Below, piece after piece: positions 2,844 through 56,842 of a DNA stretch of 64,000 bases; position 1 is the stretch's first letter, and each line of letters opens with the position of its first letter. The stretch is from Deltaproteobacteria bacterium HGW-Deltaproteobacteria-15 (GTDB taxonomy: Bacteria > Desulfobacterota > DSM-4660 > Desulfatiglandales > HGW-15): the NCBI GenBank assembly GCA_002840535.1, contig PHBH01000024.1:3261-67260 (forward strand), written 5' to 3'. The position numbers were made by a program, and so were the translations under genes. The notes beneath the pieces are model-generated. The model searched no databases and was not told where the DNA came from. It saw only the letters and a list, made by a program, of their open reading frames with translations.

Positions 2844-4034
2844 TTATATCTCCAGGATCTTCTTCGGCGTGCGATGCAGGCTCTCGCCCGGACCCTTTTC
2901 CGTGATCAGGTAGTTGTCGCAGGTCGTTGCCCAGATCCGATCGTCGACCACAAACGGGTGGACGGTCAGGTTCATGCCGGCCTGAATTTTCATCGGCTCG
3001 TCATCACGTATGGCCGGGCGTTCAACCAGGTCGTATCCCTGGCCATGGGCATAGAGACGCCTTTCAGGCTTGAACCCGTGGCGGGACAGGAACTCGTTAT
3101 TGGCATCCCAGACCGTCTTGGGATCCGTTCCCGGCCTGAGCAATTTGAGGCTGACTTCCTGCGCCTCCACTGAAAGCGCATACGCCTCCTGCAACTGCTG
3201 CGGGGCTTTGCCCAGGCAGAACATGCGGCCGATCTCCGTATAAAAACCGGCAGGTCCATTGGTTTCTATCAACACGGCTACGCGATCCCCTTTGCGGATC
3301 ATCCTGTTCTGAAAATGCCTGAACTGGTATCTGGCCGTGCTCTCGGGGGGCGCCGAGCTGACAAGGATCAACTGACGCTCGCTCCCGTTGCGCACAACCG
3401 AGTATTGGGCTTCAGCCAGCACCTCGAAGTCCCTCATGCCGGGCCTGATCGTCTTCCTGAGATGCTCCATGGCAGCGTCCTGAAGAGCGGCCGTTTTCCT
3501 GATCCACTCCTGCTCCTCCGGGCTCTTGATGACCTTGAACCGATCGATCTCTTCCGTGACGTCCACCCACTTGTGTCCAACCAATCGCTGGACAAGAAAA
3601 TCATGAAAGGGCGCTGGAATGAACGAAAGCCCGACAAAGCCGACAGTGGCGTTTTTCTTTTTCGACAGGACCCCCGCTGCGAGCTCTGCATCCATGGTGT
3701 TCGTATAATGGATGGATGGAAAATAGGGCGCCGCCAGCCGGCTCTTTACCCCGCGAACGGCAAACGGAGGCGGAAAGGGTTCTCCCGGCGGTTTGGGCCC
3801 GCATGTGATGGTGGTCATTTCGTCATCCACCGGGAAGATGACGGTATACGGATAACTGTGTCGTGCGGAGAAATCGGAAAACCATTTTACATAACCGCCC
3901 AGGAACTCTTCGTCGTTCCGCATGATCAGGAAATCGATGCCGCGCTCGCGCATCATCTCTCTGGCCGCCTTCCAGCGGCGCTCCAGTTCTTTTGTGGAAA
4001 TACAGGCAGTCAGCCTCTCCCTTGGATCTTCCAT
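2844..4034 (-). CDS. M24 family metallopeptidase (Xaa-Pro aminopeptidase / creatinase-like)
   Basis: Pita-bread fold motifs (HGxGxxxHE-like HGQGYDLVERP, creatinase N-domain). The start was set at the ATG at 4034, preceded by AGGAGGA; the upstream part of the ORF has no support. Confidence 0.7.
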   Translation of the reverse strand: MEDPRERLTACISTKELERRWKAAREMMRERGIDFLIMRNDEEFLGGYVKWFSDFSARHSYPYTVIFPVDDEMTTITCGPKPPGEPFPPPFAVRGVKSRLAAPYFPSIHYTNTMDAELAAGVLSKKKNATVGFVGLSFIPAPFHDFLVQRLVGHKWVDVTEEIDRFKVIKSPEEQEWIRKTAALQDAAMEHLRKTIRPGMRDFEVLAEAQYSVVRNGSERQLILVSSAPPESTARYQFRHFQNRMIRKGDRVAVLIETNGPAGFYTEIGRMFCLGKAPQQLQEAYALSVEAQEVSLKLLRPGTDPKTVWDANNEFLSRHGFKPERRLYAHGQGYDLVERPAIRDDEPMKIQAGMNLTVHPFVVDDRIWATTCDNYLITEKGPGESLHRTPKKILEI

Positions 4035-4291
4035 GTTTCCTCCTGTCCTGTTACTCGGCAGTGACAGCCACAAGATCATGGCCGTACTACCGGAATTGCG
4101 CAACCCAGATGCTCCGGCAGAATAATGCAAGGGGCACGGCCGGACAAGCGAATTCGTCCACTCCGGCGGACCGTTTTTCAGCAACCGCGCCACCCGGTTT
4201 CCGTTGACTTGCCCTCCCCCTTATTTTAGCATTGCACCGCATTTGGAGACATATCGATGAACAATTGTAAACCTTTACTGGAGGATCATCC

Positions 4292-5266
4292 ATGAGACGT
4301 TTTCATATTGCGATTCACCTGCTCGTCTTCATCATGATTTCTGTTTTCGCTGCACAGACCGCCCATGCACAGGCTTATCCGAATCGTCCTATCCAGCTCA
4401 TCATCGCCATCCCCGCAGGCGGCGGCGGTGATGTAAATGCCCGTCTCATCATCGATGAGATTGCAAAGAACGTCGGCACCCAGGTCATTCCCACGAACAA
4501 ACCCGGCGCCTCCGACACGGTCGGAACAGACGCCCTGGCCAAGAGCAAGAACGACGGGTACACCATCGGCTATACCAGCGGCGCTGCCATGGTCTACTTC
4601 CGGCTGACCAATCCGGATGCGGTTCACTACGATCCCATTAAGGATTTCGACCCGCTGGGCCTTCACACCTTTTTCCCGCTTTCGGTTGCCGTTCAGGCCG
4701 ATTCCCCCTGGAAAACCTTTAAGGAGTTCGTGGAATACGCAAAACAAAATCCCGGAAAGCTCCGCGTCAGCACTGCAGGTGTGGGAAGCGCGGCGAATTT
4801 CAACGTTCAGATCACGCAGTCCCTCACAGGCGCTCAATTCACCCACGTTCCCTTCAAAGGCGGCGAGGCGGTCGTAACCGCGCTGCTGGGGGGGCACGTT
4901 GAGGTGAGCTTCGATATCGTGGGCAAATTCCTGCCCCATGTAGAGGCTGGAAAGCTCAGGATTTTGCTGGCCAGCACGAAAACGCCCGTGCTCAAGGATG
5001 TTCCCACTTTGAAGGAATTGGGCTACCCGCGAGATCTGCTCTCTGGATGGCATGGACTGTTTGCCCCGGCAGGAATTTCTGCAGAGGCGAAGAAGGTTCT
5101 CCTTCCGGCTGTCGAGAAGGCGATCAAGAGCCCTGATGCCAAGGCGAAGATTGAAAAGATTGGGTATGTGGTGAACTACAAGGACCCCGAGGATTTCAAG
5201 AAACTCATTAATGATGATTTCGCGACTGCAAAGGAAATCGCCGCCAAGCTTAATCTGGGCAAGTGA
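4292..5266 (+). CDS. tctC: tripartite tricarboxylate transporter substrate-binding protein (TctC/Bug family)
   Basis: Signal peptide followed by a Bug-family fold. GGAGGA SD 6 nt upstream. Followed by tctB and tctA. Confidence 0.8.
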   Translation: MRRFHIAIHLLVFIMISVFAAQTAHAQAYPNRPIQLIIAIPAGGGGDVNARLIIDEIAKNVGTQVIPTNKPGASDTVGTDALAKSKNDGYTIGYTSGAAMVYFRLTNPDAVHYDPIKDFDPLGLHTFFPLSVAVQADSPWKTFKEFVEYAKQNPGKLRVSTAGVGSAANFNVQITQSLTGAQFTHVPFKGGEAVVTALLGGHVEVSFDIVGKFLPHVEAGKLRILLASTKTPVLKDVPTLKELGYPRDLLSGWHGLFAPAGISAEAKKVLLPAVEKAIKSPDAKAKIEKIGYVVNYKDPEDFKKLINDDFATAKEIAAKLNLGK

Positions 5267-5393
5267 AGTTGATCAGTTAGTTTCGACCCGTTCGCCCTGG
5301 GTATCGAAGGGCGACGGGAATTTCGGGATTCGATACCTCAGCACGAACGGAACTCTCCAGGTTGTTTTCTTTGCGTCCGAGGAAAAGAAGCGA

Positions 5394-5852
5394 ATGGGAA
5401 AGGCGGACAGGGTAAGCGGCATCTTCTGGCTCATCTTTTCTGTTGCCGTAATGGCGGCATCCTACCGTTTGGGGCTGGGCTCTTTGCGAAGGCCCGGCCC
5501 CGGCTTCTTCTTTTTCTGGGCCGGTTTATTCATGGCGATCCTGGCGCTGATCGTCTTTGTTCAGGCTTTGGCAAAAAGGAGGAGGGAGAGTGCACCCGAA
5601 TACCTTTTTCGAGGAAGGAACATCCTCAAGATCGTTCTGGTGCTGGCCTCAGTCTTCCTTTACGCCCTTTTCATAGAGCAGCTGGGATTCCTGGCGGTCA
5701 CTTTTCTGCTTTTCATTTTCCTCCTGGGCTTTATGGAGAAGAAGGGATTCTTTTTTGCTGTTCTGACGAGTCTGCTGGTCACGGCTTCGGCATACATGAT
5801 CTTCAAGGTTCTTTTGAAATCCCAGCTCCCGATGGGCTGGTTGGGATTTTGA
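5394..5852 (+). CDS. tctB: tripartite tricarboxylate transporter small permease TctB
   Basis: About 150-aa 4-TM protein between tctC and tctA. The start was chosen at the internal ATG 5394 with a GAGGAAAA SD. Confidence 0.6.
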   Translation: MGKADRVSGIFWLIFSVAVMAASYRLGLGSLRRPGPGFFFFWAGLFMAILALIVFVQALAKRRRESAPEYLFRGRNILKIVLVLASVFLYALFIEQLGFLAVTFLLFIFLLGFMEKKGFFFAVLTSLLVTASAYMIFKVLLKSQLPMGWLGF

Positions 5853-5879
5853 GTTCAATAACGACTCGGTAGCGGCTGC

Positions 5880-7373
5880 ATGGACGTACTCAATAATGTT
5901 CTCTATGGTTTTCAAGTTGCCCTTCAGCCGATAAATCTCCTCTACTGCTTTATGGGGACATTGGTCGGAACCCTGGTCGGCGTTCTTCCCGGCCTTGGAC
6001 CTCCGGCAGCCATCGCCCTTCTGCTTCCCACCACCTTTCACACCAACCCGGTCTCCGCAACAATCATGCTGGCCGGCATATATTATGGCGCCATGTACGG
6101 CGGTTCCACCACCTCTATCCTCGTGAACATCCCGGGTGAGGCGGCGGCGGTCGTCACCTGCCTCGACGGACACAAAATGGCCCTTCAAGGGAGGGCCGGC
6201 CCTGCACTCGGTATAGCCGCCTTCGGCTCCTTCATTGCCGGGACTTTCGGTGTGATCGCCTTGACACTCCTTGGCCCCCTCTTGTCCGGAGTGGCCCTGA
6301 AATTCGGACCGCCGGAGTACTTTTCCCTTATGATCGTCGGCATTACGGTCCTGACTTACCTCAGCAGCGGCTCCATGATCAAAGCATTGATTTCGGCAAC
6401 GGCCGGCCTCGTCCTGGGCGGGGTCGGCATGGACGCCATAAGCGGGAAATATCGTTTCACGGGGGGACTCCAGATCCTGGCCGACGGGGTCGGGCTCGTG
6501 CCAATGGTAATGGGGCTTTTCGGTATCGCCGAGGTGCTTCAAAACCTGGAGAAGGAATTCAAGAGAGAGGTTGTAAAGGCGGAGTTCAAACGGCTCCTGC
6601 CCAGCGCCAAAGACTGGAGAGATGCCATCGGCGCAATTCTGCGCGGAACCGGCTTGGGATTTTTCATGGGGCTGATCCCGGGCGGGGGGGCGATTGTCGC
6701 ATCTTTTGCCTCGTATGCGATTGAGAAGAAGATCTCAAAACACCCGGAACAATTCGGCCACGGAGCCATTCAGGGTGTCGCGGCCCCGGAAGCGGCCAAC
6801 AACTCCGCGGCAAGCGGCAACTTCATCCCCCTTCTTACCCTCGGCATCCCATGCAATGCTGTCATGGCCATCCTGCTGGGTGCTCTGATGATCCATGGCC
6901 TCCAGCCCGGACCTCTCCTCATGACCAAAGCGCCGGATGTCTTCTGGGGAACCATCGTGAGCATGTATCTCGGGAATGCCATGCTTCTCGTGCTCAACCT
7001 CCCCCTTATCGGCCTATGGGTAAAGGTCCTCAAGGTTCCCTATTTTCTGCTTTATCCGCTGATCCTTCTCTTTTGCGTGATAGGCGCTTACAGCATAGCG
7101 AATAACGCAGGGGATGTTGTGCTGATGCTGATCTTCGGCGTTGTGGGGTATCTCATGAGGAGATTCCAATACGACGCGGCCCCTCTGGTCCTCGCGGCAG
7201 TGCTCGGGCCCATGCTCGAAGAGGCCTTCCGCCAGTCCCTCATGCTTTCCCAGGGAGAATTCTCCATTTTTGTCTCCCGTCCCATCTCGGTCGGCTTTCT
7301 CATTGTAGCCGCACTCCTTTTCATCATTCCCGTGATCACCCAGCGCAAAAAGCTAGCGGCCCTGAAGGAATAG
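5880..7373 (+). CDS. tctA: tripartite tricarboxylate transporter large permease TctA
   Basis: 497-aa polytopic membrane protein with conserved TctA N-terminal region ([12 protein letters not shown]..., G-rich repeats). Confidence 0.85.
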
Positions 7374-7469
7374 GTAGTCGAAACAATCATAGCCACTGCG
7401 CTGAGTGCATGATAAAATCCTTGTTTTTTAAAGAATCACTTTTTCATTGGGCGGGTGACAAGATTAGAC

Positions 7470-7919
7470 ATGCGAATCTGGAGTCTACATCCGAAGTACC
7501 TGGACGGTCGCGGACTCGTTGCTTTGTGGCGGGAAGCTCTTCTTGCCCAGGCCGTGCTTAAGGGAGAAACGAAAGGGTATGTTCACCACCCTCAGCTTGT
7601 GCGTTTTCGTACCGGGTCGCAATCCGTCGGGTTCATTGCGGAGTATCTGAGGACCGTTCACAAGGAGGCGTTGAACCGGGGCTACCGTTTTGCGGCCGAA
7701 AAGATCAGCAGCTTGCGAGCACCGAGCTTTCTCACTGTCACCTGCGGACAGATCGAGTTCGAATGGCAGCACCTGATGAAAAAGCTGGCAAAGCGCGATC
7801 CGAAATGGCTGTCTCGCATACAGGAAATGGAGCCTCCAAACCCGCACCCGCTCTTCCGGGTTGTAAGCGGCAGTGTTGCCCATTGGGAAAAAGGCGCGTC
7901 AGCGACCAGGGACATATAA
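7470..7919 (+). CDS. pyrimidine dimer DNA glycosylase-like protein (Pyr_excise family)
   Basis: N-terminus MRIWSLHPKYLD...GLVALWREALLAQ resembles the conserved start of the bacterial Pyr_excise family. The assignment is from memory of the family and not verified. Confidence 0.45.
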   Translation: MRIWSLHPKYLDGRGLVALWREALLAQAVLKGETKGYVHHPQLVRFRTGSQSVGFIAEYLRTVHKEALNRGYRFAAEKISSLRAPSFLTVTCGQIEFEWQHLMKKLAKRDPKWLSRIQEMEPPNPHPLFRVVSGSVAHWEKGASATRDI

Positions 7920-8104
7920 CAAAAAGAACCCAGGATGTCTCCAGCGTCCAGCGAGCGACTGCAGAGCATTGAAGACAATCTCTGGACGAGCAGGCACCTC
8001 ATGCACTCAGGACGGACGAATGAACCATACAAAGAGTAAGCCTTACATGAATTCTGAGGAACTCCATACCCGATGCTGCGGCCCGACGAAAGGAGAGGAT
8101 TGAC

Positions 8105-8668
8105 ATGAAAAAATCGTTTGGCGCCAAAACACTCATTTTTCCTGCGCCGGTCTGGTGCGTGGGATCGTACGACGCCAATGGGAATCCCAACGTGATGACC
8201 ATCGCCTGGGGCGGCATCTGTTGTTCCCAGCCGCCCTGTGTGACCATATCTCTCCGCAAGGCTACCTATACCTATGGCAATATCATGGCGAGACAGGCGT
8301 ATACATTGAGCGTTCCATCCGTCAACTATGTTCAAGCTGCCGATTATTTTGGAATGGTATCCGGGCGCAAGGCCAATAAATTCCAGGAAACCGGCCTTAC
8401 GCCGGTCACATCCGAACTGGTGGACGCCCCTTACGTGGGGGAATTTCCGATGATCCTGGAATGCAGGGTGATTCATCACTACGAGATCGGTCTGCACACC
8501 CATTTTGTCGGCGAGATCCTGGATGTCAAAGTGGATGAAGCTGTGTTAGATGTTGATGGTGTGCCGGATATCGAAAAGCTCCGTCCATTTGTCTACAGCC
8601 CCGAAGCTCAACGATATCATGGTATCGGATCATTTGTAGGAAAGGCTTTCGAGGTCGGCAGATCGTGA
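8105..8668 (+). CDS. flavin reductase-like (flavoredoxin) domain protein
   Basis: Flavin_Reduct-type sequence (PVWCVGSYDANGNPNVMTIAWGG). AAAGGAGAGG SD present. Confidence 0.7.
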   Translation: MKKSFGAKTLIFPAPVWCVGSYDANGNPNVMTIAWGGICCSQPPCVTISLRKATYTYGNIMARQAYTLSVPSVNYVQAADYFGMVSGRKANKFQETGLTPVTSELVDAPYVGEFPMILECRVIHHYEIGLHTHFVGEILDVKVDEAVLDVDGVPDIEKLRPFVYSPEAQRYHGIGSFVGKAFEVGRS

Positions 8669-8761
8669 TCAGCCATGCCGTGTGGGCTCTGTGGAAGAAA
8701 GTAATCAGTGGATGTGAAGAGCCGTCAGTTGCTGGTTTTCAATTCGAAAGTCGCGTGAGGG

Positions 8762-9097
8762 TTGGAGGATGAAGTGACGGTGAAAGGGACATTGCTTGAA
8801 GGCATACCGGTTCAATTGCCGGAAGAACTCCTTGAAACAATCTGCTCATCGGGGAGTGTGAAGATAGAGCGGATAGTTTCACGGGGACACGCTTCGCCTG
8901 AAGGGTTTTGGTACGATCAGGAAAGGAGTGAGTTTGTTCTGGTTGTGCGGGGGAGTGCAGGGCTGAAGATCGAGAACGAAGAGGATATCGCGGTCCTGAA
9001 GGCGGGTGATTACCTGAACATCGGCGCTCATGTGAAACACCGGGTCGAGTGGACCGATCCCGCATGTGAAACGATCTGGCTGGCAGTCTATTATTGA
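8762..9097 (+). CDS. cupin domain protein
   Basis: Small double-stranded beta-helix signature. The start may instead be the GTG at 8773 (GGAGG 5 nt upstream). Confidence 0.55.
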   Translation: MEDEVTVKGTLLEGIPVQLPEELLETICSSGSVKIERIVSRGHASPEGFWYDQERSEFVLVVRGSAGLKIENEEDIAVLKAGDYLNIGAHVKHRVEWTDPACETIWLAVYY

Positions 9098-9246
9098 AGA
9101 GATATCGGCTGATAAGAGTGGAGCACTTATTACGGAGTGCAGAAAAAAGTTTCTATTTATCTCGCAAAGCCCACAGAGCGTGTTGGTACTCGATCGACGG
9201 CAGAACCGAAATGTCGCTTATAGCTCTTGCCCCCGAAGGGTGAAGT

Positions 9247-9277
9247 TTGTCCTGTTTTTTGAAAAAAAACAGGACAA
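9247..9277. repeat. near-perfect 31-bp AT-rich palindrome (cttgtcctgtttttt-ga-aaaaaaacaggacaag)
   Basis: Read directly from the sequence. Lies between the cupin and the OMP gene. Could be a bidirectional terminator-like hairpin or a protein-binding operator. Confidence 0.6.
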
Positions 9278-9410
9278 GTTGGCACTCTCCAGAACTCTGT
9301 GCCCTCAAGCGAAGCGGGCGAGAGACGCTCTTTGTGAAACAAGCAAGCAATTATGTGCTCCGCTCAATAATACGAATTGACAATTTCCTGCTTACGAAAG
9401 GAGCGTGAAA

Positions 9411-10073
9411 ATGACTCGAATTGTAAGGATCGTCGGTGTTTTGGCTGCGGTTTGGTTGATGGGCGAAATGGCGCACGCCGCCCCGGGTGACGTCGGATCG
9501 TCTTCTAATTGGTCCGGCCCGTATATCGGGGCTTTTGCAGGCTATTCCTGGGTTGACTTGGATTACTCTGAACCGGATTTTCCCGGAAGCGAGCGCAACC
9601 CGACTATCAACGGCGTCACCGGCGGCGCTTTCCTGGGCTACAATCATCGGTTTGAACGGATCCTGCTGGGCATCGAGGCCGATGTAGGCCTGGGTGATCT
9701 CGACGAGGGTCGCGACGAGACCGCGTGGAATAATTACTCGGCGTTCGACATCGATTGGAACGCGCATTTTCGTGCGAGACTAGGCTTTGTTTCCGGCTCA
9801 ACGCTGATCTATATCGCCGGCGGCCTGGCGTTTGCCAAAGTGACGGTCGATGATACGGACCCGGGCTGGGGCGAAGACGACGCCACCCATGTCGGCTGGA
9901 CGGCAGGCGCCGGCGTCGAGCATGCCTTCACCAGGAATCTGCGGGCACGCATTGAATATCTCTATGACGATTACGGCAAAGAGGACTATTCAATAGATGG
10001 TTTTTTCACGTACAGGTCGGATGTCGATTTGACTGCGAACACTGTTCGCGTCGGCTTGTCCTATCAGTTTTAG
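9411..10073 (+). CDS. outer-membrane beta-barrel protein (OmpA-like TM / OmpW-like), C-terminal YQF
   Basis: Signal peptide, alternating hydrophobic beta-strand pattern and a terminal aromatic residue. AAAGGAG SD 8 nt upstream of the ATG at 9411. Confidence 0.65.
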   Translation: MTRIVRIVGVLAAVWLMGEMAHAAPGDVGSSSNWSGPYIGAFAGYSWVDLDYSEPDFPGSERNPTINGVTGGAFLGYNHRFERILLGIEADVGLGDLDEGRDETAWNNYSAFDIDWNAHFRARLGFVSGSTLIYIAGGLAFAKVTVDDTDPGWGEDDATHVGWTAGAGVEHAFTRNLRARIEYLYDDYGKEDYSIDGFFTYRSDVDLTANTVRVGLSYQF

Positions 10074-10143
10074 TCTTATCAACAGGAAGAGACACAAGAT
10101 CCTGCCCCGACATCCGGGGTGGGACATAACGAGGTAAGCACCT

Positions 10144-11103
10144 GTGCACACATCACTCGAAGATATCGAGTCGGCTTGCCGTATCGTCTATTCGAATATG
10201 CAGGCGACACCGCAATATTGCTGGCCCCTGCTCTGCGAACGGTTGGGTACGGAAGTGTGGGTCAAGCACGAGAACCACACGGTTGTCGGCGCGTTCAAAA
10301 TCCGCGGAGGACTGGTCTATTTCGATCACCTGTCCAAATCTGCCGGGATGGTCCAAGGCGTGATCAGTGCGACCCGTGGAAACCATGGCCAGTCGGTTGG
10401 ATACGGTGCCCGCCGCTACGGGATTCGGGCTACTGTAGTCGTGCCCCATGGCAATAGTGTTGAAAAAAATGATGCCATGCGCGCGCTCGGCGTGGAGTTG
10501 ATCGAGCACGGCGATGACTTCCAGGCGGCCCGCGAGCACGCAGAGAGCCTCGCCGGCAAGAGGTCGCTGCACATGGTGCCGTCGTTTCACCCGCTGCTGA
10601 TAGCGGGTGTGGCCACGTACAGCCTGGAGCTGCTGAGGGCCGTCAGGGATGTCGATATCGTCTATGTGCCCATCGGGCTCGGCTCAGGCATCTGCGGAAT
10701 GCTCGCTGCAAGGGACGCGCTGGGTGTAAAAGCCGAGATCGTCGGAGTGGTATCTTCTCATGCCCCGGCCTATGCTGAATCCTTCAGCGCCGGACGGTCG
10801 ATCGATTCCCCTGTCACCACAAGACTTGCCGACGGCATTGCCTGCCGCACGCCGGAGCCTGCCGCTCTGGACCTTATCTTGAAAGGCGTAGAACGGATTG
10901 TTCAGGTCACGGATGACGAGGTGGCAGCGGCAATGCGCATGCTGTTCGAATGCACTCACAACGCGAGCGAAGGCGCGGGTGCTGCTGCAGTTGCAGCAGC
11001 GGCAAAGGAAAAATCCCTGATTGCCGGCCGCAAAGTGGCCGTTGTCCTGTCGGGCGGCAACGTCGACCGGGAGGTTTTTGCCTCCGTTCTCGGCAGCCGA
11101 TGA
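10144..11103 (+). CDS. PLP-dependent threonine/serine dehydratase (threonine ammonia-lyase family)
   Basis: Lys-containing PLP motif (VGAFKIRGG) and glycine-rich loop (GLGSGICG). GTG start with a GAGGT SD. Confidence 0.75.
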   Translation: MHTSLEDIESACRIVYSNMQATPQYCWPLLCERLGTEVWVKHENHTVVGAFKIRGGLVYFDHLSKSAGMVQGVISATRGNHGQSVGYGARRYGIRATVVVPHGNSVEKNDAMRALGVELIEHGDDFQAAREHAESLAGKRSLHMVPSFHPLLIAGVATYSLELLRAVRDVDIVYVPIGLGSGICGMLAARDALGVKAEIVGVVSSHAPAYAESFSAGRSIDSPVTTRLADGIACRTPEPAALDLILKGVERIVQVTDDEVAAAMRMLFECTHNASEGAGAAAVAAAAKEKSLIAGRKVAVVLSGGNVDREVFASVLGSR

Positions 11104-11180
11104 TTCCGGAAGAATATTGCATTCCATCTCTCAAAAGGGTATGAGGGCTTGTCTCTCTTTCTCAAGTAGTAACCTTAAGC

Positions 11181-13070
11181 ATGATCAAGAAACGAAACAT
11201 CCTTACTGTATTGGTTTTTGCCTGCTTTTTGCTTTTCTCCCGCAGCGTTTTGGCAGAAACCGTTGCCCTTCCGCTTTCCCTCGATTCTCAACTGCTCAGA
11301 TCCATGATCATCAAAGCCGCCTACACAGACGAGGGAAGGACTGCCGTTTTGGCCGGACATCGGGGGGGCTGCAAGTCCATTGTCCTCTCTGAGCCGAGAT
11401 ACGTCATCCGGGATAACAGCCTCGTCTTTGAAACGAGGGTCTTCATCCAGGCGGGATTCAGCATCGGCGAGACCTGTATCCTGCCCACCTCATGGGAAGG
11501 ATATGTTGCTCTCACCCAGGTTCCTGTCATAGACGACCGATGGGTCCTCTCTTTCAGGACGATCGAATCCGAGGTCTACAACCAGGACCATGAGCCTGCC
11601 CGTGTCATGGGTTTTTTCTGGAACTTGATCAAATCGCATGTCTTCGAATACCTGAGCCAGATCACGATCAATCTTGCTCCCCCTGTGGAAGACCTCCGGC
11701 TATTCACCAGGGACGTGTTTCCTGCAGCATTGCAGGAAAATGCCCGGAGAATCCTGGACAGCTTCAGGCCCGGAAAAGTGGAAACGCGTGAGGAGAGCAT
11801 CACAGTCGAAATCCTGGCGGAAGTCGGTCAAGAGGAGAGAGAAGGAAAATCCGACGAAGAGGTCCTCGAGCAGGAAGAGGTGGATAGATTCATTACCCTG
11901 TGGGAGACATGGGACGCGTATTTTGTGCAGATGATCACCGCTCTCCCGAGAGAAAAATTGAGTGCCGGTGAAAGGGAGCTTATCCTGGATGTGCTCCTTG
12001 ATGCCAGGCACGGCTTCGAGGATGAGCTTCTTGAGTCAGGAGGAAAAACCGATTTTGTCAGGAAGCAATTTATAGAGGCGTGGGGCCGCCTCTCGCCGAT
12101 TTTCAGAAAAAGGATGAGCGACGATCCTGCCCGGCCTGTTCTCGACTATCTTGCCTTTTTCACGGCCTCCGATGCCCTTGTTGCGCTGGACAAACTAGGG
12201 CCTGGGCTGGGAATCGAGATCAGCCGAAACGGCTTGATACATCTGGCCCGCCTCATCAGCAGCAAAGATATTACCGATCTTCCATACGCGTTTGTGGTGG
12301 ATGAGGATCTGAGGTCCATCCTTGGGCTTGGCGATCCACTTCCCCTTACCGAGCCTTCTTTTGACGGGGAATCCATCGAGATCGCCCCGGAAGAGTTCAA
12401 GCCCGAGGAAAAGGAGTGGCTCCTGCACGTGAAGGGTTTCTTCATCGCCACGGCCTGGGCCGGAACCGATCCAAAGCAAGCCTTCCGTGACCGTATTACC
12501 CCCTGGCTGGTCCCAAAAGGCGATGTCATGGCCTATCTCAATAGGGTCAAACTCCTCTTGAACGAAGCCTCAACCAAGGTTTTTTCCAAAACCGATCTGG
12601 ACAGGGGGCTCAGCGAGTTCTACAATCTCCTCGTTCTTTCCACCGCATGGCAGGAAACCTGCTTCCGACAATTCGTGATAGAGAGAGGCAAGGCGACGTA
12701 CCTGCGGTCGTATAACCACACGTCTGTAGGGATCATGCAGATCAACGAACGCGTGTGGCGAGGCATCTATGATCTGAACCACCTGCGCTGGGATATCGTA
12801 TACAACGCCACGGCCGGTTGCGAGATCCTCAGTTTATATCTGAAGAAATATGGTCTGCCGGATACAGAGAAGACAGGATCGGGAAAGCCGCCCGATCATG
12901 AGACCCTTGCCAGATCGGTCTATGCCGTGTACAGCGGGGGTCCGGGTCATTTGCGGAAATGGAAAGACGCTCTGGCCAAAGGACGGCCCGGCGTCATCGA
13001 CAAATTGTTCCTGGAAAAGTATCGATGGGTCTGCAGCAGCCAATGGGAACAAATAGGGGGATGTTTGTGA
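11181..13070 (+). CDS. secreted protein with C-terminal lytic transglycosylase (SLT) catalytic domain
   Basis: N-terminal signal peptide. C-terminal ...STAWQETCFRQF...SVGIMQIN... matches the SLT catalytic E-S / GLMQ region. Confidence 0.6.
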   Translation: MIKKRNILTVLVFACFLLFSRSVLAETVALPLSLDSQLLRSMIIKAAYTDEGRTAVLAGHRGGCKSIVLSEPRYVIRDNSLVFETRVFIQAGFSIGETCILPTSWEGYVALTQVPVIDDRWVLSFRTIESEVYNQDHEPARVMGFFWNLIKSHVFEYLSQITINLAPPVEDLRLFTRDVFPAALQENARRILDSFRPGKVETREESITVEILAEVGQEEREGKSDEEVLEQEEVDRFITLWETWDAYFVQMITALPREKLSAGERELILDVLLDARHGFEDELLESGGKTDFVRKQFIEAWGRLSPIFRKRMSDDPARPVLDYLAFFTASDALVALDKLGPGLGIEISRNGLIHLARLISSKDITDLPYAFVVDEDLRSILGLGDPLPLTEPSFDGESIEIAPEEFKPEEKEWLLHVKGFFIATAWAGTDPKQAFRDRITPWLVPKGDVMAYLNRVKLLLNEASTKVFSKTDLDRGLSEFYNLLVLSTAWQETCFRQFVIERGKATYLRSYNHTSVGIMQINERVWRGIYDLNHLRWDIVYNATAGCEILSLYLKKYGLPDTEKTGSGKPPDHETLARSVYAVYSGGPGHLRKWKDALAKGRPGVIDKLFLEKYRWVCSSQWEQIGGCL

Positions 13071-17335: not shown

Positions 17336-17500
17336 AATTCCCAAATCCGAATATCGAATACCGAAATTCGAAACAAACCCGAAAACCCAAATTCTCAAAT
17401 GATCTAAACCCCAACCGTTCATTTGAGTGGATCGTTTTGTTTGGGGCTTTTCGATTTCTGGGTATCTGAACTTGTTTCGGATTTCGTGCTTTGGATTTCT
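17336..17500. repeat. AT-rich region with an inverted pair of 'AAATCCGAA..CGAAAT(A/C)CGAAACAA' motifs. Further copies at 42296-42345 and, more weakly, 58575-58605.
   Basis: Direct comparison: 17340-17375 (+), rc of 17462-17500, and 42305-42340 share about 25-30 nt. Confidence 0.55.
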
Positions 17501-20478: not shown

Positions 20479-20895
20479 ATGGTTGTGATGGTCATGGACG
20501 GGCAGGGAGGCGGCATCGGCGCAGTCATCATCAAGAGTCTGCGGGAACAGCTGACTCGGGATTATGAAATCCTTGCGCTCGGTACCAATTCTTCAGCCAC
20601 CGCCAGAATGATGAAAGCAGGGGCCAATCGTGGGGCCACAGGGGAGAACGCCATTGTTCGGGCAAGCCTGTGCGCAAATATCATCGTCGGACCCCTGGCC
20701 ATAATCATGCCCAATTCCATGATGGGGGAAGTGACCACTCCGATGGCGGAGGCGGTCAGCTCCTGTGAAGCCAGGAAAATCCTGATACCCCTCTCACAGG
20801 AAAAGGTAACGCTTGCCGGTTTTACCGGAGAGCCCCTGCCTCACCTGGTAAATCACGCAGTACAACGAGTTAAGGAGTTGATAAACGATGTGTGA
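20479..20895 (+). CDS. DUF3842-like protein
   Basis: N-terminal DGQGGGIG motif as recalled for DUF3842. Alternative start at the ATG at 20488. Confidence 0.45.
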   Translation: MVVMVMDGQGGGIGAVIIKSLREQLTRDYEILALGTNSSATARMMKAGANRGATGENAIVRASLCANIIVGPLAIIMPNSMMGEVTTPMAEAVSSCEARKILIPLSQEKVTLAGFTGEPLPHLVNHAVQRVKELINDV

Positions 20896-21076
20896 AGCAG
20901 CCGCTTTTTTACTGAAGGATCAAAAAGAGGAACTCCTCCTGGAGTCCGTGGAAGTGATCGAGACAGGAGAAAACGATGTAACCCTCGTCAACATCTTCGG
21001 TGAACGGAAGGTCATCAGGGCGAAGATCAAGTCGTTCTCTCTGGTTGATCATAAAATCGTGCTTGAACCCATGTGA
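20888..21076 (+). CDS. CooT-family putative nickel-binding protein (Met-Cys N-terminus)
   Basis: 62 aa beginning with MC; hydrophobic beta pattern similar to CooT. AAGGAG SD 9 nt upstream. Overlaps the previous gene. Confidence 0.45.
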   Translation: MCEAAAFLLKDQKEELLLESVEVIETGENDVTLVNIFGERKVIRAKIKSFSLVDHKIVLEPM

Positions 21077-38321: not shown

Positions 38322-38747
38322 ATGAGCCCCAGGACAAGTCCCTTTTGGGAAAAAAAGACGCTTCGACAGATGACCCGGCGCGAATGGGAGGCCCTCTGCG
38401 ACGGATGTGGAGCCTGCTGCCTCGAAAAGCAGGTGAACATGGTCACAGGCCTGATCACCGTGTTCTCTGTTTGTTGTGAATATCTGGATGTAAAGAGTTG
38501 CCGCTGCACGATCTACAAGGAGCGCGCTGTGAAGAATCCGGAATGTATCACGATTACACCCGGGAATGTCGGCAGGATGGGCTGGCTCCCTCAGACATGT
38601 GCATACCGGCTATTATCTGAAGGCAAAGACCTGGAGTGGTGGCATCCACTCCTTTCCCGGAATCCGGATACCGTTCACCAGGCAGGAATATCGATCCGAA
38701 ATCGCGCTGTCTCGGGAAAATTTGTGCATCCGGAGGATCTGAAATGA
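38322..38747 (+). CDS. ycgN: YcgN-family (UPF0260) cysteine-cluster protein
   Basis: PFW..KTL..M...EWE.LCDGCG.CCL ... EWLP.TCAYRLL.EGKDL..WHPL matches E. coli YcgN closely (from memory). Confidence 0.7.
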   Translation: MSPRTSPFWEKKTLRQMTRREWEALCDGCGACCLEKQVNMVTGLITVFSVCCEYLDVKSCRCTIYKERAVKNPECITITPGNVGRMGWLPQTCAYRLLSEGKDLEWWHPLLSRNPDTVHQAGISIRNRAVSGKFVHPEDLK

Positions 38748-40012
38748 GAGTCCTTTTGATATCCGCAAATACGGAGACCTTCGGGATGCCCGTTCTTCCC
38801 ATCGGCCTCGGGGCAGTGGCGGCTGCCACTGAAAAGGCAGGGCATGATGTGAGGACGCTTGACTTGCTCGGCGTGGATGACCCGGAACTTTCGATCAGGA
38901 AGACTGTGGAGGAGTTCGATCCGGAGGTCACGGGTATCTCAGTGAGAAACATCGACGACCAGAGCAAGGCAAACCCGAGATTCCTGCTGAGGAACGTGAA
39001 AGAGGTCGTCTCCTGGTGCAGGAACCTCTCGCCCGCGCCTGTTGTCGTCGGTGGATCGGGGTACAGCATCTTTCCTGAAAGCGCCTTAGCCTATCTGGGA
39101 GCGGACATGGGGATTCAGGGCGAAGGGGAAAACGGCTTCACGGTTCTCCTCTCTCGGATGCGGGAGGGGTCCGATCTTTCGGGTGTGCCGGGTCTTTACC
39201 TGCCGGGCCGAGGCAGAAGCGGACCGAGGCAGTTCGCAAAATGCCTGGATGACCTGCCTTTGCCCGAACCTCGACTCTGGGTTTCATCAGAGGACTTGGA
39301 CGAGTGGGTTCCCTTTCAGACGAGGAGAGGATGTCCCATGAGGTGCAGTTATTGCTCCACGGCATCCATTGAAGGCGATACCCTCCGGAAGCGGGATAAA
39401 AAGCTTGTGGCTGAATCCATAGCGAAATATGTGGAAACCGGGTTCACCAGATTTCATTTCGTGGACAATCTTTTCAATCTTCCCCCATCTTACTCCCTGG
39501 ATCTCTGCAGGGAACTCATACAGCGGGACCTTGGAATCTCCTGGCGGGCAATCGTCTACCCTGGAAAACTCAGCCGCGAACTGGTTGCAGCCATGAAGAA
39601 GGCCGGCTGCACAGAGGTGAGTCTCGGGTTCGAAAGCGGGTCGGACCGGGTTCTTCGCTCTATGCACAAGATGTTCAGCAGCAGTGAGGTTCGTCGCGCC
39701 TCGGACTTGTTCCGCGAAAATGGAATTCGCCGAATGGGTTTTCTTCTCCTCGGCGGCCCGGATGAGTCCCGGGAAACCGTTGAAGAAAGCCTTGCTTTTG
39801 TGGATTCCCTGGGTCTCGATGCGCTGAGGGTGACAATCGGGATCAGGATTTATCCATTCACCTCCCTGGCTGAAACGGCGCGCCGGGAAAACATGGTTGA
39901 TGCTGAGGACGATCTGCTGTTGCCCCGGTTTTATCTGAAACCGGGTCTCGAGGATTGGCTGAGGAAAACAGTACGAGAGTGGGCTGCAGGGCGGCCTTTT
40001 TTCATTACTTAG
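38744..40012 (+). CDS. B12-binding domain radical SAM protein (class B)
   Basis: N-terminal cobalamin-binding Rossmann region, CPMRCSYC radical-SAM cluster motif. The start overlaps the ycgN stop (ATGA). Confidence 0.8.
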   Translation: MRVLLISANTETFGMPVLPIGLGAVAAATEKAGHDVRTLDLLGVDDPELSIRKTVEEFDPEVTGISVRNIDDQSKANPRFLLRNVKEVVSWCRNLSPAPVVVGGSGYSIFPESALAYLGADMGIQGEGENGFTVLLSRMREGSDLSGVPGLYLPGRGRSGPRQFAKCLDDLPLPEPRLWVSSEDLDEWVPFQTRRGCPMRCSYCSTASIEGDTLRKRDKKLVAESIAKYVETGFTRFHFVDNLFNLPPSYSLDLCRELIQRDLGISWRAIVYPGKLSRELVAAMKKAGCTEVSLGFESGSDRVLRSMHKMFSSSEVRRASDLFRENGIRRMGFLLLGGPDESRETVEESLAFVDSLGLDALRVTIGIRIYPFTSLAETARRENMVDAEDDLLLPRFYLKPGLEDWLRKTVREWAAGRPFFIT

Positions 40013-41456: not shown

Positions 41457-41879
41457 ATGGAAAAACCAATGAGAGAAGAAATCAGGAGAAGGATACTGGA
41501 GGCGAGCAAGGCGATCCCAACCGGGTATCTGAGTGACACCGTCATCAAGGAGACAATCCGATGCGTGCTCTTCGGAATCCTGAAAGAACAAGGGCTCATC
41601 CCTGTACCGGCATTTCGCAACCCACGCTACCCGGAGGGGGCGGTGGATATCGTAGGCGTCACCATCGGCCAGGAAAAGCTTCCTGCCATTGAAATGGCCT
41701 TTTGCAGCAATCCGGTAATCGAATTGGAAGACGTCAAGAAACTCGATCGCGTGCCCTGCGAGAAAAAGATGATCATCACTTTTTCCAGGGACAGGAAGAA
41801 GGTCGATATGACCAGGTTCTTTCTAAAGCCGGGAATCGACCACATTCATGTGCATGAGGAAACGGTCAAGAAGGCATAG
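41457..41879 (+). CDS. hypothetical protein
   Basis: ORF only, with no family recognised. Confidence 0.35.
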   Translation: MEKPMREEIRRRILEASKAIPTGYLSDTVIKETIRCVLFGILKEQGLIPVPAFRNPRYPEGAVDIVGVTIGQEKLPAIEMAFCSNPVIELEDVKKLDRVPCEKKMIITFSRDRKKVDMTRFFLKPGIDHIHVHEETVKKA

Positions 41880-41885
41880 TAACGG

Positions 41886-41921
41886 AAGGCAGGGAGGAGA
41901 AAAGCCTCTCCTGCCTTCCGG
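41886..41921. terminator. GC-rich hairpin between convergent genes (cggaaggcagggaggag-aaaagc-ctctcctgccttccg)
   Basis: Read from the sequence; no clear U-tail on either strand. Confidence 0.4.
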
Positions 41922-41954: not shown

Positions 41955-42116
41955 TCAACAGCAGCAGGGGTCCATGAAGAATTGACAGCCGGATTCTCCA
42001 TCCTCGCACGGTTCCACGGGATAATAACATGTGCAAGGATCATTCAGCTCCCGGCAACAGTCTTCGCCCGACATCTTCATGGAAGTTTCCTCCTGTTCCA
42101 TATCCTTCACAGTCAT
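41955..42116 (-). CDS. unannotated 53-aa cysteine-rich small protein (MTVKDMEQEETSMKMSGEDCCRELNDPCTCYYPVEPCEDGESGCQFFMDPCCC)
   Basis: Not in the ORF track (below its length cut-off). The ATG at 42116 is preceded by AAGGAGGTG (6-nt spacer). 9 Cys in the last 34 residues; acidic N-terminal half. Confidence 0.5.
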   Translation of the reverse strand: MTVKDMEQEETSMKMSGEDCCRELNDPCTCYYPVEPCEDGESGCQFFMDPCCC

Positions 42117-42371
42117 GAGAGTCACCTCCTTCCATCCAAGGCCTCGCCGCGGACTTCAAAACCCCGATCAGGCCAAGCAGCTTTGATTCTCAAGGAGGGC
42201 TTCAAATCGGCGATGCACTTGCTTTTTAAGCTAAGGATGAAACATCGAATCGCAAGACGGCGCAAGTGAGTCTCCACCCCCCGAGGGGGGCTCATGCGAG
42301 GGGATATGAATAAATCCGAAATCCGAAGCACGAAATACGAAACAATGCGACACTAGAGAGGAGAATCGACA

Positions 42372-42956
42372 ATGACGCAAACAATAGAGAGAACGGCACT
42401 CTACTTCAAGAAGAAGGGGCCTTCCAATACGGACAAAACGCTCGATGTCGCCCTTTCATTCTGCAAGGAGCAGAGTATCCGTAAGATAGTAGTGGCGTCC
42501 TCCACAGGCGAGACCGCCCTCAAGTGTCACGAAAAAGCGGGTTCCATGCAGATCGAGATGATTGCTGTGACTTATGGGGCCGGAACCAAGTATCGGGAGG
42601 AGGTGGAGGCCTTCAACCGAAACCACCAGCCACTTCTCAATAAAGGTATTCGGGTTGTCCGAGGGCTCCACGCATTGAGCGGGGTGGAGAGGACTTTCGA
42701 AAATCGCTACAAGTCCGGGTTTATTCCATTGAATGTGGTTGCCGATACTCTGCGGATGTTCTCTCAGGGAATGAAGGTATGCGTGGAGATCTCCATCATG
42801 GCGGCCGAGGCCGGCTACATCACCCCGGACGAGGACATAGTGGCGGTGGGCGGAAGCGGTACCGGGGCGGACACCGCGGTGCTGATCCGATCGGGGTATG
42901 CAGCCTCTCTCTTCGACACCAAGATCAAGGCCATCCTCTGCATGCCGGCTGGATGA
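42372..42956 (+). CDS. hypothetical protein, possibly pyruvate-kinase alpha/beta (PK_C)-like domain
   Basis: IVVASSTGETA...IEMIAVTY resembles the PK_C pattern; weak. Confidence 0.35.
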   Translation: MTQTIERTALYFKKKGPSNTDKTLDVALSFCKEQSIRKIVVASSTGETALKCHEKAGSMQIEMIAVTYGAGTKYREEVEAFNRNHQPLLNKGIRVVRGLHALSGVERTFENRYKSGFIPLNVVADTLRMFSQGMKVCVEISIMAAEAGYITPDEDIVAVGGSGTGADTAVLIRSGYAASLFDTKIKAILCMPAG

Positions 42957-55495: not shown

Positions 55496-56842
55496 ATGAA
55501 CAATGTCTGGGAATCGTTGAAGGAGGCTCTCCGGTCCAAGGTGCCCGAGAAAAGCTACTCGCTCTGGATCAAGCCAATCACCCTTCTCGAACACAAAGAA
55601 AGCACCCTTCTCCTGGGGTGTCCCAACAAGTTCTCCCTGAACTGGGTCATGGAGAATTATGGCGAGATCATGGAGGAGCGGCTTCGAGAAATCTCGGAGG
55701 GCAGTTGCAGCTTCCACCTGAAGGTCATGCCCGCACCGAAGAACGTCCCGAAGCAGGCCCTGAAGGATGAACCACAGTTGGTCCTTCCCCACGTGCCCGT
55801 GACTCCCCGAAGGGGCTGGAGGACCCTGAATCACGATTTCACGTTCGACCGGTTCGTGGTAGGGAAATGCAACGAATTCGCCTATTCGGCATCCAAAGCT
55901 CTCGCGCTGGAGTCCAGCTTCCCCTATAACCCCCTTTTCCTTCTGGCAAACACCGGGTTGGGAAAAAGCCATCTCTCTCAGGCCGTCGGCCATGCCATGC
56001 TCCAGAACAAACCCGACCTCAGGGTTTATTACATCACAGCAGAAGACTTCGTAAACGAAATGATCTGGGCACTCAAGAACAACTCCATCGAGGAGTTCAA
56101 AGGAAAATACCGCAGATCCTGCGATGCATTGCTCCTCGAAGAGGTGCACTTCCTGAGCGGCAAGGAGAAGACGCAGGTGGAACTGGGATACACCCTGGAC
56201 GCCCTGGCCGATGACCATAAGAAGATCATTTTCACGAGCTCGGTCCTTCCCAAGGATATCCCCAATCTGTCAAAGGAGCTTTACTCTCGCTTCAACTCAG
56301 GGCTGATCGCCACCCTGGACATGCCCGACTATGACACGCGGTTGAAGATTCTGGAAAAAAAGGCCTCTGAGCAGAACCTCCACCTGTCGGATGAAATCGT
56401 CCACCTGCTCGCAGAGAAGCTCCCCGGAGACATTCGTCAGATGGAGAGCGCCCTTCGCTGCTTGAAGGCCAAATCCGAACTCCTGAAAGCCAAGATCGAC
56501 ATGGACCTGGCGAGAGAGGTTCTGCAATGCCATGTCTCCGAGGAGAGCGGCTCGAATCAGGAAGACATCAGGGCGCTCGTCTGCCGGTATTTCAAAATAG
56601 ATCCATCCGTGCTGCAATCTAAATCGAGAAAAGCAGCCCATTCGTATCCCCGGAATGTGTATGTCTACCTCTGCCGCAGGCACACCAGCATGACCCTGGA
56701 GCAGATCGGGCAGTCCATCAACAGGAATCATTCCACCATCGTGTATGCCTGTGAGGTGATCGAGCGAAAGATGAAGGCCGATGCAAAGGTGAAGAACCAG
56801 ATCGCTTTTTTCGGCCAGAGGCTCAGAGGAGTACAGGCATAA
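55496..56842 (+). CDS. dnaA: chromosomal replication initiator DnaA
   Basis: AAA+ Walker A/B, DnaA signature, and C-terminal DNA-binding helix (VYVYLCRRHT..SMTLEQIGQ). Confidence 0.95.
   Translation: MNNVWESLKEALRSKVPEKSYSLWIKPITLLEHKESTLLLGCPNKFSLNWVMENYGEIMEERLREISEGSCSFHLKVMPAPKNVPKQALKDEPQLVLPHVPVTPRRGWRTLNHDFTFDRFVVGKCNEFAYSASKALALESSFPYNPLFLLANTGLGKSHLSQAVGHAMLQNKPDLRVYYITAEDFVNEMIWALKNNSIEEFKGKYRRSCDALLLEEVHFLSGKEKTQVELGYTLDALADDHKKIIFTSSVLPKDIPNLSKELYSRFNSGLIATLDMPDYDTRLKILEKKASEQNLHLSDEIVHLLAEKLPGDIRQMESALRCLKAKSELLKAKIDMDLAREVLQCHVSEESGSNQEDIRALVCRYFKIDPSVLQSKSRKAAHSYPRNVYVYLCRRHTSMTLEQIGQSINRNHSTIVYACEVIERKMKADAKVKNQIAFFGQRLRGVQA

Follow-up and report, generated by a model that had tools for sequence, protein, structure and literature searches.

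We analyzed a 64,000-nt stretch of contig PHBH01000024.1 of HGW-Deltaproteobacteria-15, which is called the window in the following, with respect to a minus-strand open reading frame (ORF) that an original prediction had singled out as an unannotated gene for a cysteine-rich peptide. Comparative analysis established, with very little room for doubt, that this ORF is protein coding; the gene is under purifying selection, and its 53-amino-acid (aa) product belongs to a family of small proteins that had not been described before. We consider it possible, with a probability of roughly 45%, that the peptide is a cytoplasmic metallothionein-like metal-thiolate protein representing a new sequence family. 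The features of the peptide gene are as follows.

41955 to 42116, minus strand: coding sequence of the peptide, 53 aa, nine Cys, acidic, with the TGA stop codon at 41955 to 41957
42123 to 42131, minus strand: Shine-Dalgarno sequence AAGGAGGTG, followed by a 6-nt spacer (ACTCTC, 42122 to 42117) and the ATG start codon (42116 to 42114)
42117 to 42221, minus strand: 5′ untranslated region (5′ UTR) of ~105 nt, for a presumed transcription start ~7 nt past the −10 element; contains the Shine-Dalgarno sequence
42228 to 42255, minus strand: promoter-like element with the −35 sequence TTGCGA (42255 to 42250), a 16-nt spacer, and the −10 sequence TAGCTT (42233 to 42228)
41883 to 41920, minus strand: GC-rich hairpin terminator, shared with the convergent gene of a 140-aa protein ending at 41879

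Translation of the minus strand from 42116 to 41955 yields MTVKDMEQEETSMKMSGEDCCRELNDPCTCYYPVEPCEDGESGCQFFMDPCCC, followed by TGA. An ORF with a near-ideal ribosome-binding site, nine Cys residues, and a terminal hairpin had been claimed, and all of these elements are present in the sequence. The mechanical ORF call opens at an in-frame GTG codon at 42125, upstream of the ATG and within the Shine-Dalgarno sequence. The credible start of the gene is the ATG rather than this GTG codon, and the arrangement GGAGGT(G/A), 6 to 7 nt, and ATG was retained in all nine related loci compared, in every clade. The description of the ORF as unannotated holds true for GenBank but not for IMG: in the protein collection that we searched, the peptide is present in the JGI, ENA, and Logan sources and absent from the NCBI source, whereas its neighbor genes do have NCBI accessions (e.g., PKN64289.1).

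Homologues were sought by a word-indexed search and two profile searches, the first of which was exhaustive. Together they yielded 19 distinct homologues of 50 to 56 aa, distributed over three diverged clades of uncultured Desulfobacterales; the 90%-identity clusters of the window proteins include metagenome-assembled genomes named Desulfobacterales or Desulfobacteraceae. Clade A, to which the window belongs, is marked by the C-terminus ...FFMDPCCC and clade B (locus L013) by ...MVMDPCCC, and clade C consists of the proteins P0025 (locus L015) and P0030 (locus L014). Identity to the window protein goes down to 43 to 60% in clades B and C, both of which were brought in by the profile search of 1.8 billion representative proteins, which added nothing further. 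Two scans of the GTDB species representatives, by the peptide profile and by the neighboring PK_C-like protein, revealed no relatives, and a literature search on the motif DPCCC returned only unrelated eukaryotic proteins. Two long eukaryotic profile matches were discarded as artefacts of repeat proteins or low complexity, and a 1312-aa Anopheles protein in the 90%-identity cluster of the peptide was discarded as a clustering artefact; none of these (P0010, P0023, P0026) is a relative. Judged by sequence comparison, the 19 sequences and their three clades form a family of small proteins that is new to description and belongs to one uncultured lineage of Desulfobacterales.

The evidence for protein coding comes from a 29-codon core that was compared across nine loci, six of them from clade A. 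Over all nine loci, 11 first, 8 second, and 27 third codon positions varied; among the six clade A loci the corresponding numbers were 2, 4, and 21. Changes were exclusively synonymous in 12 of the 29 core codons (nine loci), including toggling between TGT and TGC at Cys codons. The ratio of nonsynonymous to synonymous substitution rates (dN/dS) in the core ranged from 0.02 to 0.30 for those clade A pairs in which dS was unsaturated, and the N-terminal 19 to 28 residues evolve faster, with a dN/dS of ~0.15 to 0.8. All indels among the homologues are multiples of three, and the reading frame of the peptide is the only frame free of stop codons in all nine loci. The antisense frame, which had given rise to a mechanical 95-aa ORF on the plus strand (41982 to 42269), is interrupted in three loci. 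Read-through of the TGA codon as selenocysteine was rejected, because the sequence 3′ of the stop is not conserved.

The protein consists of a variable acidic N-terminal part (residues 1 to 19) and a conserved core of 34 residues (residues 20 to 53). Its Cys residues are located at positions 20, 21, 28, 30, 37, 44, 51, 52, and 53, and they are organized in three C-x4-[D/E]-P-C modules (C21-C28, C30-C37, and C44-C51) plus C20, C52, and C53, so that the core follows the pattern [C]C-x4-(D/N)-P-C - x - C-x4-(E/D)-P-C - x6 - C-x4-D-P-C - CC. In an alignment of nine representatives from the three clades, the Cys residues C21, C28, C30, C37, C44, C51, C52, and C53 were invariant, as were the non-Cys residues L24, P27, Y31, Y32, P36, D39, D49, and P50. 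Each of the 19 variants contains exactly nine Cys residues, equivalent to 16 to 18% of the sequence (17% in the window protein). Eight of the positions are fixed; the ninth moves, forming CC, CxxC, or Cx5C, yet is never lost, which suggests selection on the number of ligands. The window protein has a pI of 4.05 and a net charge of −10, and its hydrophobic runs do not exceed three residues, so that it has no signal peptide or membrane segment. Across the homologues the net charge lies between −8 and −12, and a signal peptide or hydrophobic segment is likewise absent. No His is present in clades A and C except in P0004, and one His is found in three of the four clade B sequences. The aromatic residues comprise two invariant Tyr and, in clade A, a Phe-Phe pair.

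These data bear directly on what had been expected of the ORF. The proposed check on homologous small ORFs was run and showed that the Cys positions are kept and that synonymous-site variation is strong across the nine loci; with nine Cys in 19 of 19 variants, a low core dN/dS, and conserved expression signals, the claim of a real, translated small gene with functionally important Cys positions is strongly supported. The N-terminal half had been called acidic and leader-like. It is indeed acidic, but in place of the conservation expected of a leader it is the least conserved part of the protein and has no conserved cleavage motif.

Database models placed the family nowhere. A Pfam scan of the window protein and 10 family members at E values up to 10 gave no match to PF02069, and no other Pfam family was matched either. 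In NCBIfam, no family was matched by the window protein at E ≤ 0.1, and the only match among the 10 members was fulvocin_rel with an E value of 1.4. The family profile matched no PDB chain at E ≤ 10, the chains of 1JJD and 6GV7 included. AlphaFold2 run on the nine-sequence alignment gave a mean predicted local distance difference test score of 54 and a predicted template modeling score of 0.24, values too low to support a fold search; such low confidence fits a metal-dependent fold, but the shallow alignment would give the same outcome.

In the reading that we prefer, the conserved C-terminal 34 residues would fold around a metal-thiolate cluster, possibly with a stoichiometry of M3-4Cys9 as in the metallothionein β-domain or SmtA, or around a Cu(I) cluster, and the protein would buffer, store, or chaperone metal in the manner of a metallothionein. 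The M3Cys9 β-domain of animal metallothioneins and the Zn4Cys9His2 cluster of SmtA likewise have nine Cys ligands. We favor a metal-thiolate protein because Cys makes up 17% of the residues in CC, CxC, and CCC motifs and its number is fixed at nine even though one Cys has moved, and also because the protein is soluble and free of export signals, has strong translation signals, and is encoded apart from any linked processing machinery. Of the operational features of metallothioneins, a low mass, a Cys content of at least ~15%, and conserved CC, CxC, and CCC motifs were found.

Several observations weigh against this assignment. Metallothioneins are expected to contain few or no aromatic residues, and the family has two invariant Tyr and, in clade A, Phe-Phe; neither four aromatics nor invariant Leu and Pro residues are usual in classical metallothioneins, and these residues point to a defined mini-fold that may serve another purpose. 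The family matched neither metallothionein models nor any Pfam, NCBIfam, or PDB family, and a local likeness to SmtA, described below, is not shared with 6GV7, nor significantly with clade C, and is probably coincidental or convergent. Moreover, the gene has no linkage to a metal-responsive regulator, an efflux pump, or a known metal riboswitch. Of the two functions originally proposed, the metallothionein-like one nevertheless fits best by virtue of the amino acid composition, the missing match to a metallothionein model notwithstanding.

The gene appears to have its own transcription signals. The sequence TTGC[CG]N-N16-TAG[CGT]TT was found upstream of the peptide gene in nine of nine loci, 52 to 164 nt before the ATG; the −10 element lies 111 nt from the ATG in the window and 52 to 164 nt from it in the other clades. 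With the spacer fixed at 16 nt, the match was unique when both strands of each locus and of the 64-kb window were checked, and one additional match with a 15-nt spacer lies inside a gene. The upstream sequences surrounding the element do not align between the three clades, and the element was not found in related loci that lack the peptide. It scores below the threshold of a generic sigma-70 scan and looks like a promoter of the sigma-70 family with a weak −10 sequence, a role suggested by its conservation. Farther upstream (42262 to 42305), the window and the identical locus L006 have a stretch of ~44 nt with the palindrome CCCCCCTCGGGGGG. This stretch, which the very close relative L009 lacks, is a recent indel of the divergent promoter region.

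The fold of the 5′ UTR is no more stable than that of shuffled sequences (z = +0.41), and an Rfam search of the 5′ UTR and the locus gave no match. In the minimum-energy fold, the pyrimidine tract CCCTCCTT is able to pair with the Shine-Dalgarno sequence. A riboswitch or thermosensor in the 5′ UTR was rejected in view of this z-score, the variation of UTR length and sequence between the clades, and the negative Rfam result. At the other end of the gene, the hairpin has 15 pairs with perfect 11-nt arms and starts 34 nt 3′ of the stop codon. Its fold has a z-score of −4.3, and 1 of 200 shuffled sequences folded as well. An equivalent GGCAGGA...UCCUGCC hairpin with a differing inner stem is present at every orthologous locus (z = −2.2 to −5.0). 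Of the seven other loci that were folded, six (L002, L011, L012, L013, L014, and L015) have a U-tract behind it on the strand of the peptide gene; the tail of the window hairpin, UUCCGUUACU, is poor in U. Because the promoter-like element, the Shine-Dalgarno sequence, and the hairpin are all conserved, the peptide transcript should be monocistronic.

Between 34928 and 51795, all genes of the window are located on the plus strand, with the peptide gene as the sole exception. The surroundings and other features of the window that are referred to below are as follows.

Genes 1 to 5 in order, plus strand: RNR, HSP20, YcgN, B12 radical S-adenosylmethionine (SAM), cupin
Genes 6 to 9 in order: NlpC/P60-SPOR (plus strand), 140-aa protein (plus strand), peptide (minus strand), PK_C-like (plus strand)
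Genes 10 to 12 in order, plus strand: creatininase, Gate, LpxR and further genes
38636 to 40012, plus strand: B12-binding radical SAM gene, its start overlapped by a gene of the YcgN Cys-cluster family (pair 38322 to 40012)
41457 to 41879, plus strand: gene of the conserved 140-aa protein (126 to 140 aa in orthologues), convergent to the peptide gene
42372 to 42956, plus strand: PK_C-like gene (PF02887, E = 6e-10), divergent from the peptide gene across 255 bp
20888 to 21076, plus strand: gene of the nickel-binding accessory protein CooT (PF10133, E = 5e-21), its start overlapped by a DUF3842 gene at 20479 to 20895 (E = 1e-51)
17343 to 17376 and 42312 to 42345, plus strand: 34-nt element AAATCCGAA...CGAAA..CGAAACAA with repeated CGAA units

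The divergence from a PK_C-like gene across a region of about 250 bp, as stated in the original prediction, was borne out. Clades A and B have a common gene order around the peptide gene. The clade C loci L014 and L015 keep the peptide, a 131-aa protein, NlpC/P60, and the PK_C-like gene (cut by the contig end in L015); in place of YcgN, the B12 radical SAM gene, and cupin, of which they are devoid, they contain a flavin reductase gene. In L014 the PK_C-like gene is split into two ORFs of 120 and 72 aa (L014 1440 to 2017), owing either to a frameshift or to an assembly error, and the peptide gene is intact. The same locus harbors, at 4961 to 12528, a Tc-toxin-like gene for more than 2900 aa with TcA/TcB domains. 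The 126- to 140-aa protein has no Pfam or NCBIfam match and stays beside NlpC/P60-SPOR in every related locus, irrespective of whether the peptide is present.

Locus L020 encodes a PK_C-like protein and a 126-aa protein that are 71% and 66% identical, respectively, to their window counterparts, and the peptide is absent. Its place (4519 to 5004, plus strand) is taken by a co-oriented gene for a 161-aa protein that has no Pfam match and whose stop codon overlaps the start of the PK_C-like gene. Since L020 keeps the flanking genes without the peptide, these neighbors do not depend on it. More distant PK_C-like loci have different contexts and no peptide; in L016 to L019, a gene with an HD_4 domain occupies the position upstream of the PK_C-like gene. 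The peptide gene is single copy and lineage specific, and we regard it as a lineage-specific insertion. A functional link to the PK_C-like gene or the gene of the 140-aa protein was tried and found unsupported, as PK_C-like homologues of 65 to 71% identity occur elsewhere or in the same context without the peptide. There was no evidence either of an origin by overprinting of a decayed gene: tblastn searches of the peptide loci with the 161-aa protein of L020 and the HD-domain proteins gave only chance matches (E > 0.4).

Two further features had been mentioned in connection with the ORF. CooT is present, but it lies 21 kb from the peptide gene and outside the conserved neighborhood. The AAATCCGAA..CGAAACAA motif does lie in the divergent spacer, at 42312 to 42345; it is not part of the conserved control region of the peptide gene, however, because it is absent from several orthologous spacers (those of L001, L002, and L012). 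The 34-nt element occurs twice in the window, compared to zero copies expected from shuffled sequences. Both copies follow a GC-rich hairpin at a distance of ~20 nt and precede an ATG by ~25 nt; for the copy at 42312, this ATG is the start of the PK_C-like gene. Possible roles of the element are a regulator site or a small promoter module of a mobile or repeated kind. Elsewhere in the window, the ORF at 55496 to 56842 on the plus strand encodes DnaA (PKN64305.1), and the window is therefore near the chromosomal replication origin.

Against this background, other explanations of the conserved Cys pattern were weighed. A structural-zinc mini-protein, in which the Cys residues would only hold the fold and the protein would bind a partner as a regulator, inhibitor, or accessory subunit, is unlikely, although it ranks first among the alternatives. 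The invariant non-Cys residues named above and the conserved hydrophobic positions 46 to 48 suggest a surface or a mini-core, the N-terminal tail, being strongly acidic, could be a nucleic acid mimic or make contact with a basic partner, and a single-copy, lineage-specific gene with its own conserved promoter would be in line with such a role. However, no partner can be named, the PK_C-like gene and the gene of the 126- to 140-aa protein pair without the peptide in L020, nine Cys exceed the need of two Zn(Cys)4 sites, and structure prediction lends no support. The invariant Tyr, Leu, and Pro residues, which suggest a defined fold, can also be counted in favor of a small iron-sulfur (Fe-S) or thiol-redox protein with one or two Fe-S clusters, a mononuclear Fe, or thiol/disulfide cycling, which would serve electron transfer, redox sensing, or sulfur handling. 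Fe-S proteins are abundant in anaerobe-type Desulfobacterales such as the host, eight to nine Cys suffice for two [4Fe-4S] clusters, and adjacent Cys residues can ligate Fe, as they do in desulforedoxin. We nevertheless judge this possibility slightly less probable still, as the alignment contains no CxxCxxCxxxCP, CxxC-knuckle, or HiPIP-type spacing, ferredoxin, rubredoxin, and other Fe-S models of Pfam and NCBIfam as well as PDB chains were not matched, and CC, CxC, and CCC motifs are seen more typically in metal-thiolate clusters than in Fe-S sites. That the locus encodes no functional protein at all, being a Cys-codon attenuation leader or a chance ORF in a noncoding RNA or in the 5′ region of a neighbor, is extremely improbable. 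A short ORF rich in codons for one amino acid with a hairpin behind it would recall an attenuator, but nothing lies downstream on the peptide strand that could be attenuated, and the hairpin serves as terminator for both the peptide gene and the convergent one. Non-Cys residues are invariant as well while third codon positions vary, the Shine-Dalgarno sequence and ATG are conserved in all clades, and Rfam gave no match. The PK_C-like gene, located on the opposite strand with a start of its own, speaks against transcription of the region solely as the 5′ UTR of a neighbor, an outcome contemplated in the original prediction.

A precursor of a ribosomally synthesized and posttranslationally modified peptide (RiPP) had been proposed alongside a metallothionein. 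It would consist of an acidic leader and a Cys-rich core cross-linked, for example, by Cys-Asp/Glu thioethers at the C-x4-[D/E] units, with the maturase encoded elsewhere in the genome. The two-part layout, in which the N-terminal half is acidic and variable and the C-terminal half Cys-rich and invariant, agrees with this idea, as does the threefold C-x4-[D/E]-P-C module, whose acidic residue five positions past the Cys may recall the thioethers of QhpC and freyrasin; in clades A and B, moreover, the gene of a B12-binding radical SAM protein is only 2 kb away. That gene is present in the window as stated, but it belongs to a separate, oppositely oriented gene string that converges on the peptide gene, and L014 and L015 retain the peptide without the B12 radical SAM, YcgN, and cupin genes, on which grounds we rejected it as the maturase. 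Its product scored as a lipid-type enzyme, with the lipid-biosynthesis model TIGR04072 as best match (301 bits, which is below the cutoff of 360 bits), and scored far below the cutoffs of RiPP methyltransferase models. No further ORF with the radical SAM motif CxxxCxxC occurs in the 64-kb window, and no SPASM enzyme, protease, RiPP recognition element-type protein, or exporter is encoded within 10 kb in any clade. The check for linked radical SAM/SPASM or metal-efflux genes was equally negative: within ±10 kb in the three clades there is no SPASM gene, the B12-type gene is the only one of the radical SAM kind, and no efflux pump is linked. SCIFF and other models of Cys-rich precursors in NCBIfam were not matched, the putative leader is the fastest-evolving part (dN/dS ~0.15 to 0.8) and has no conserved cleavage or GG/GA-type motif, and in a syntenic relative an unrelated gene occupies the place of the peptide, the flanking genes being independent of it. 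With clade C lacking the B12 radical SAM gene and no other maturase, protease, or transporter conserved nearby, the RiPP proposal is disfavored, and we consider it quite improbable. We are marginally more skeptical of the specific idea that the peptide is the substrate of an unlinked, still-to-be-found enzyme that would cross-link the three C-x4-[D/E]-P-C modules, for example, through Cys-Asp/Glu thioethers. If it were true, a triply bridged peptide natural product or cofactor-like peptide would be made by deep-subsurface Desulfobacterales from a lone precursor gene with a dedicated promoter.

Known families of small bacterial Cys-rich metal-binding proteins are few. Should the peptide be metallothionein-like, it would found a third bacterial metallothionein family with a distinct structure, the first to come from strict anaerobes. 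It would then bear on the handling of thiophilic metals in sulfidic settings by sulfate-reducer-like bacteria of groundwater and sediments, and its compact nine-Cys module would widen the range of minimal metal-binding folds. The family does not extend beyond a narrow uncultured clade and is not tied to any pathway, so that its importance depends entirely on its biochemistry. The locus also shows how GenBank annotation can miss a small gene in spite of strong conservation and a promoter and terminator of its own.

Among known systems, the precursors of SCIFF peptides, ranthipeptides, and QhpC resemble the peptide in being small (~45 to 80 aa) and in having a conserved core and several Cys, each followed at a short distance by Asp or Glu. 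They differ in adjoining the gene of a SPASM radical SAM maturase, which is not linked to the peptide gene in any clade. QhpC is the γ subunit of quinohemoprotein amine dehydrogenase, and Cys-Asp/Glu thioethers are formed in QhpC, freyrasin, and ranthipeptides. Cys-rich peptides cross-linked by radical SAM enzymes have been reviewed (PMC8326336, PMC10114670).

As of 2020, SmtA and MymT were the only two bacterial metallothioneins whose function had been studied (PMC7387436). The SmtA/BmtA family (PF02069; SmtA structure 1JJD with Zn4Cys9His2) is close to the peptide in size (56 aa for SmtA versus 53 aa), and SmtA and the peptide have in common nine Cys, a [D/E]-P-C-x-C motif, a cytoplasmic location, and a single small gene. 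Residues 28 to 42 of SmtA, part of its zinc site, align with the peptide segment YYxxExCxDGx[S/T]G, which is preceded by [D/E]PCxC. Comparison by hhalign with SmtA, whose sequence was verified against 1JJD, gave a P value of 4e-4 and a probability of 34% over 15 columns only. Out of 5000 composition-preserving shuffles, 9 reached the SmtA score for clade B, 116 did so for the window protein, and 532 to 775 for clade C; in the case of the Pseudomonas metallothionein 6GV7, 3037 to 4202 of 5000 shuffles reached the score, which means that there is no signal. The His ligands of SmtA and its 13-residue β-hairpin loop are absent from the peptide, so the family does not have the Cys9His2 ligand set of SmtA/BmtA; the peptide is also much more acidic, and no SmtB-type repressor gene adjoins it. 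Homology to SmtA/BmtA was therefore not accepted: because the likeness does not reach 6GV7 and is weak in clade C, the peptide was not filed under PF02069, and the resemblance would be convergent or coincidental.

MymT, the Cu(I) metallothionein of Mycobacterium, is a cytoplasmic protein of ~53 aa that is lineage restricted, escaped genome annotation, and is not part of any broad family. None of our searches detected sequence similarity between it and the peptide, and the two differ in their motifs: MymT uses Cys and His motifs, whereas the peptide has CC and CCC together with three C-x4-[D/E]-P-C modules. In being small, Cys-rich, and lineage restricted and in containing CxC-type motifs, the peptide is nonetheless similar to MymT.

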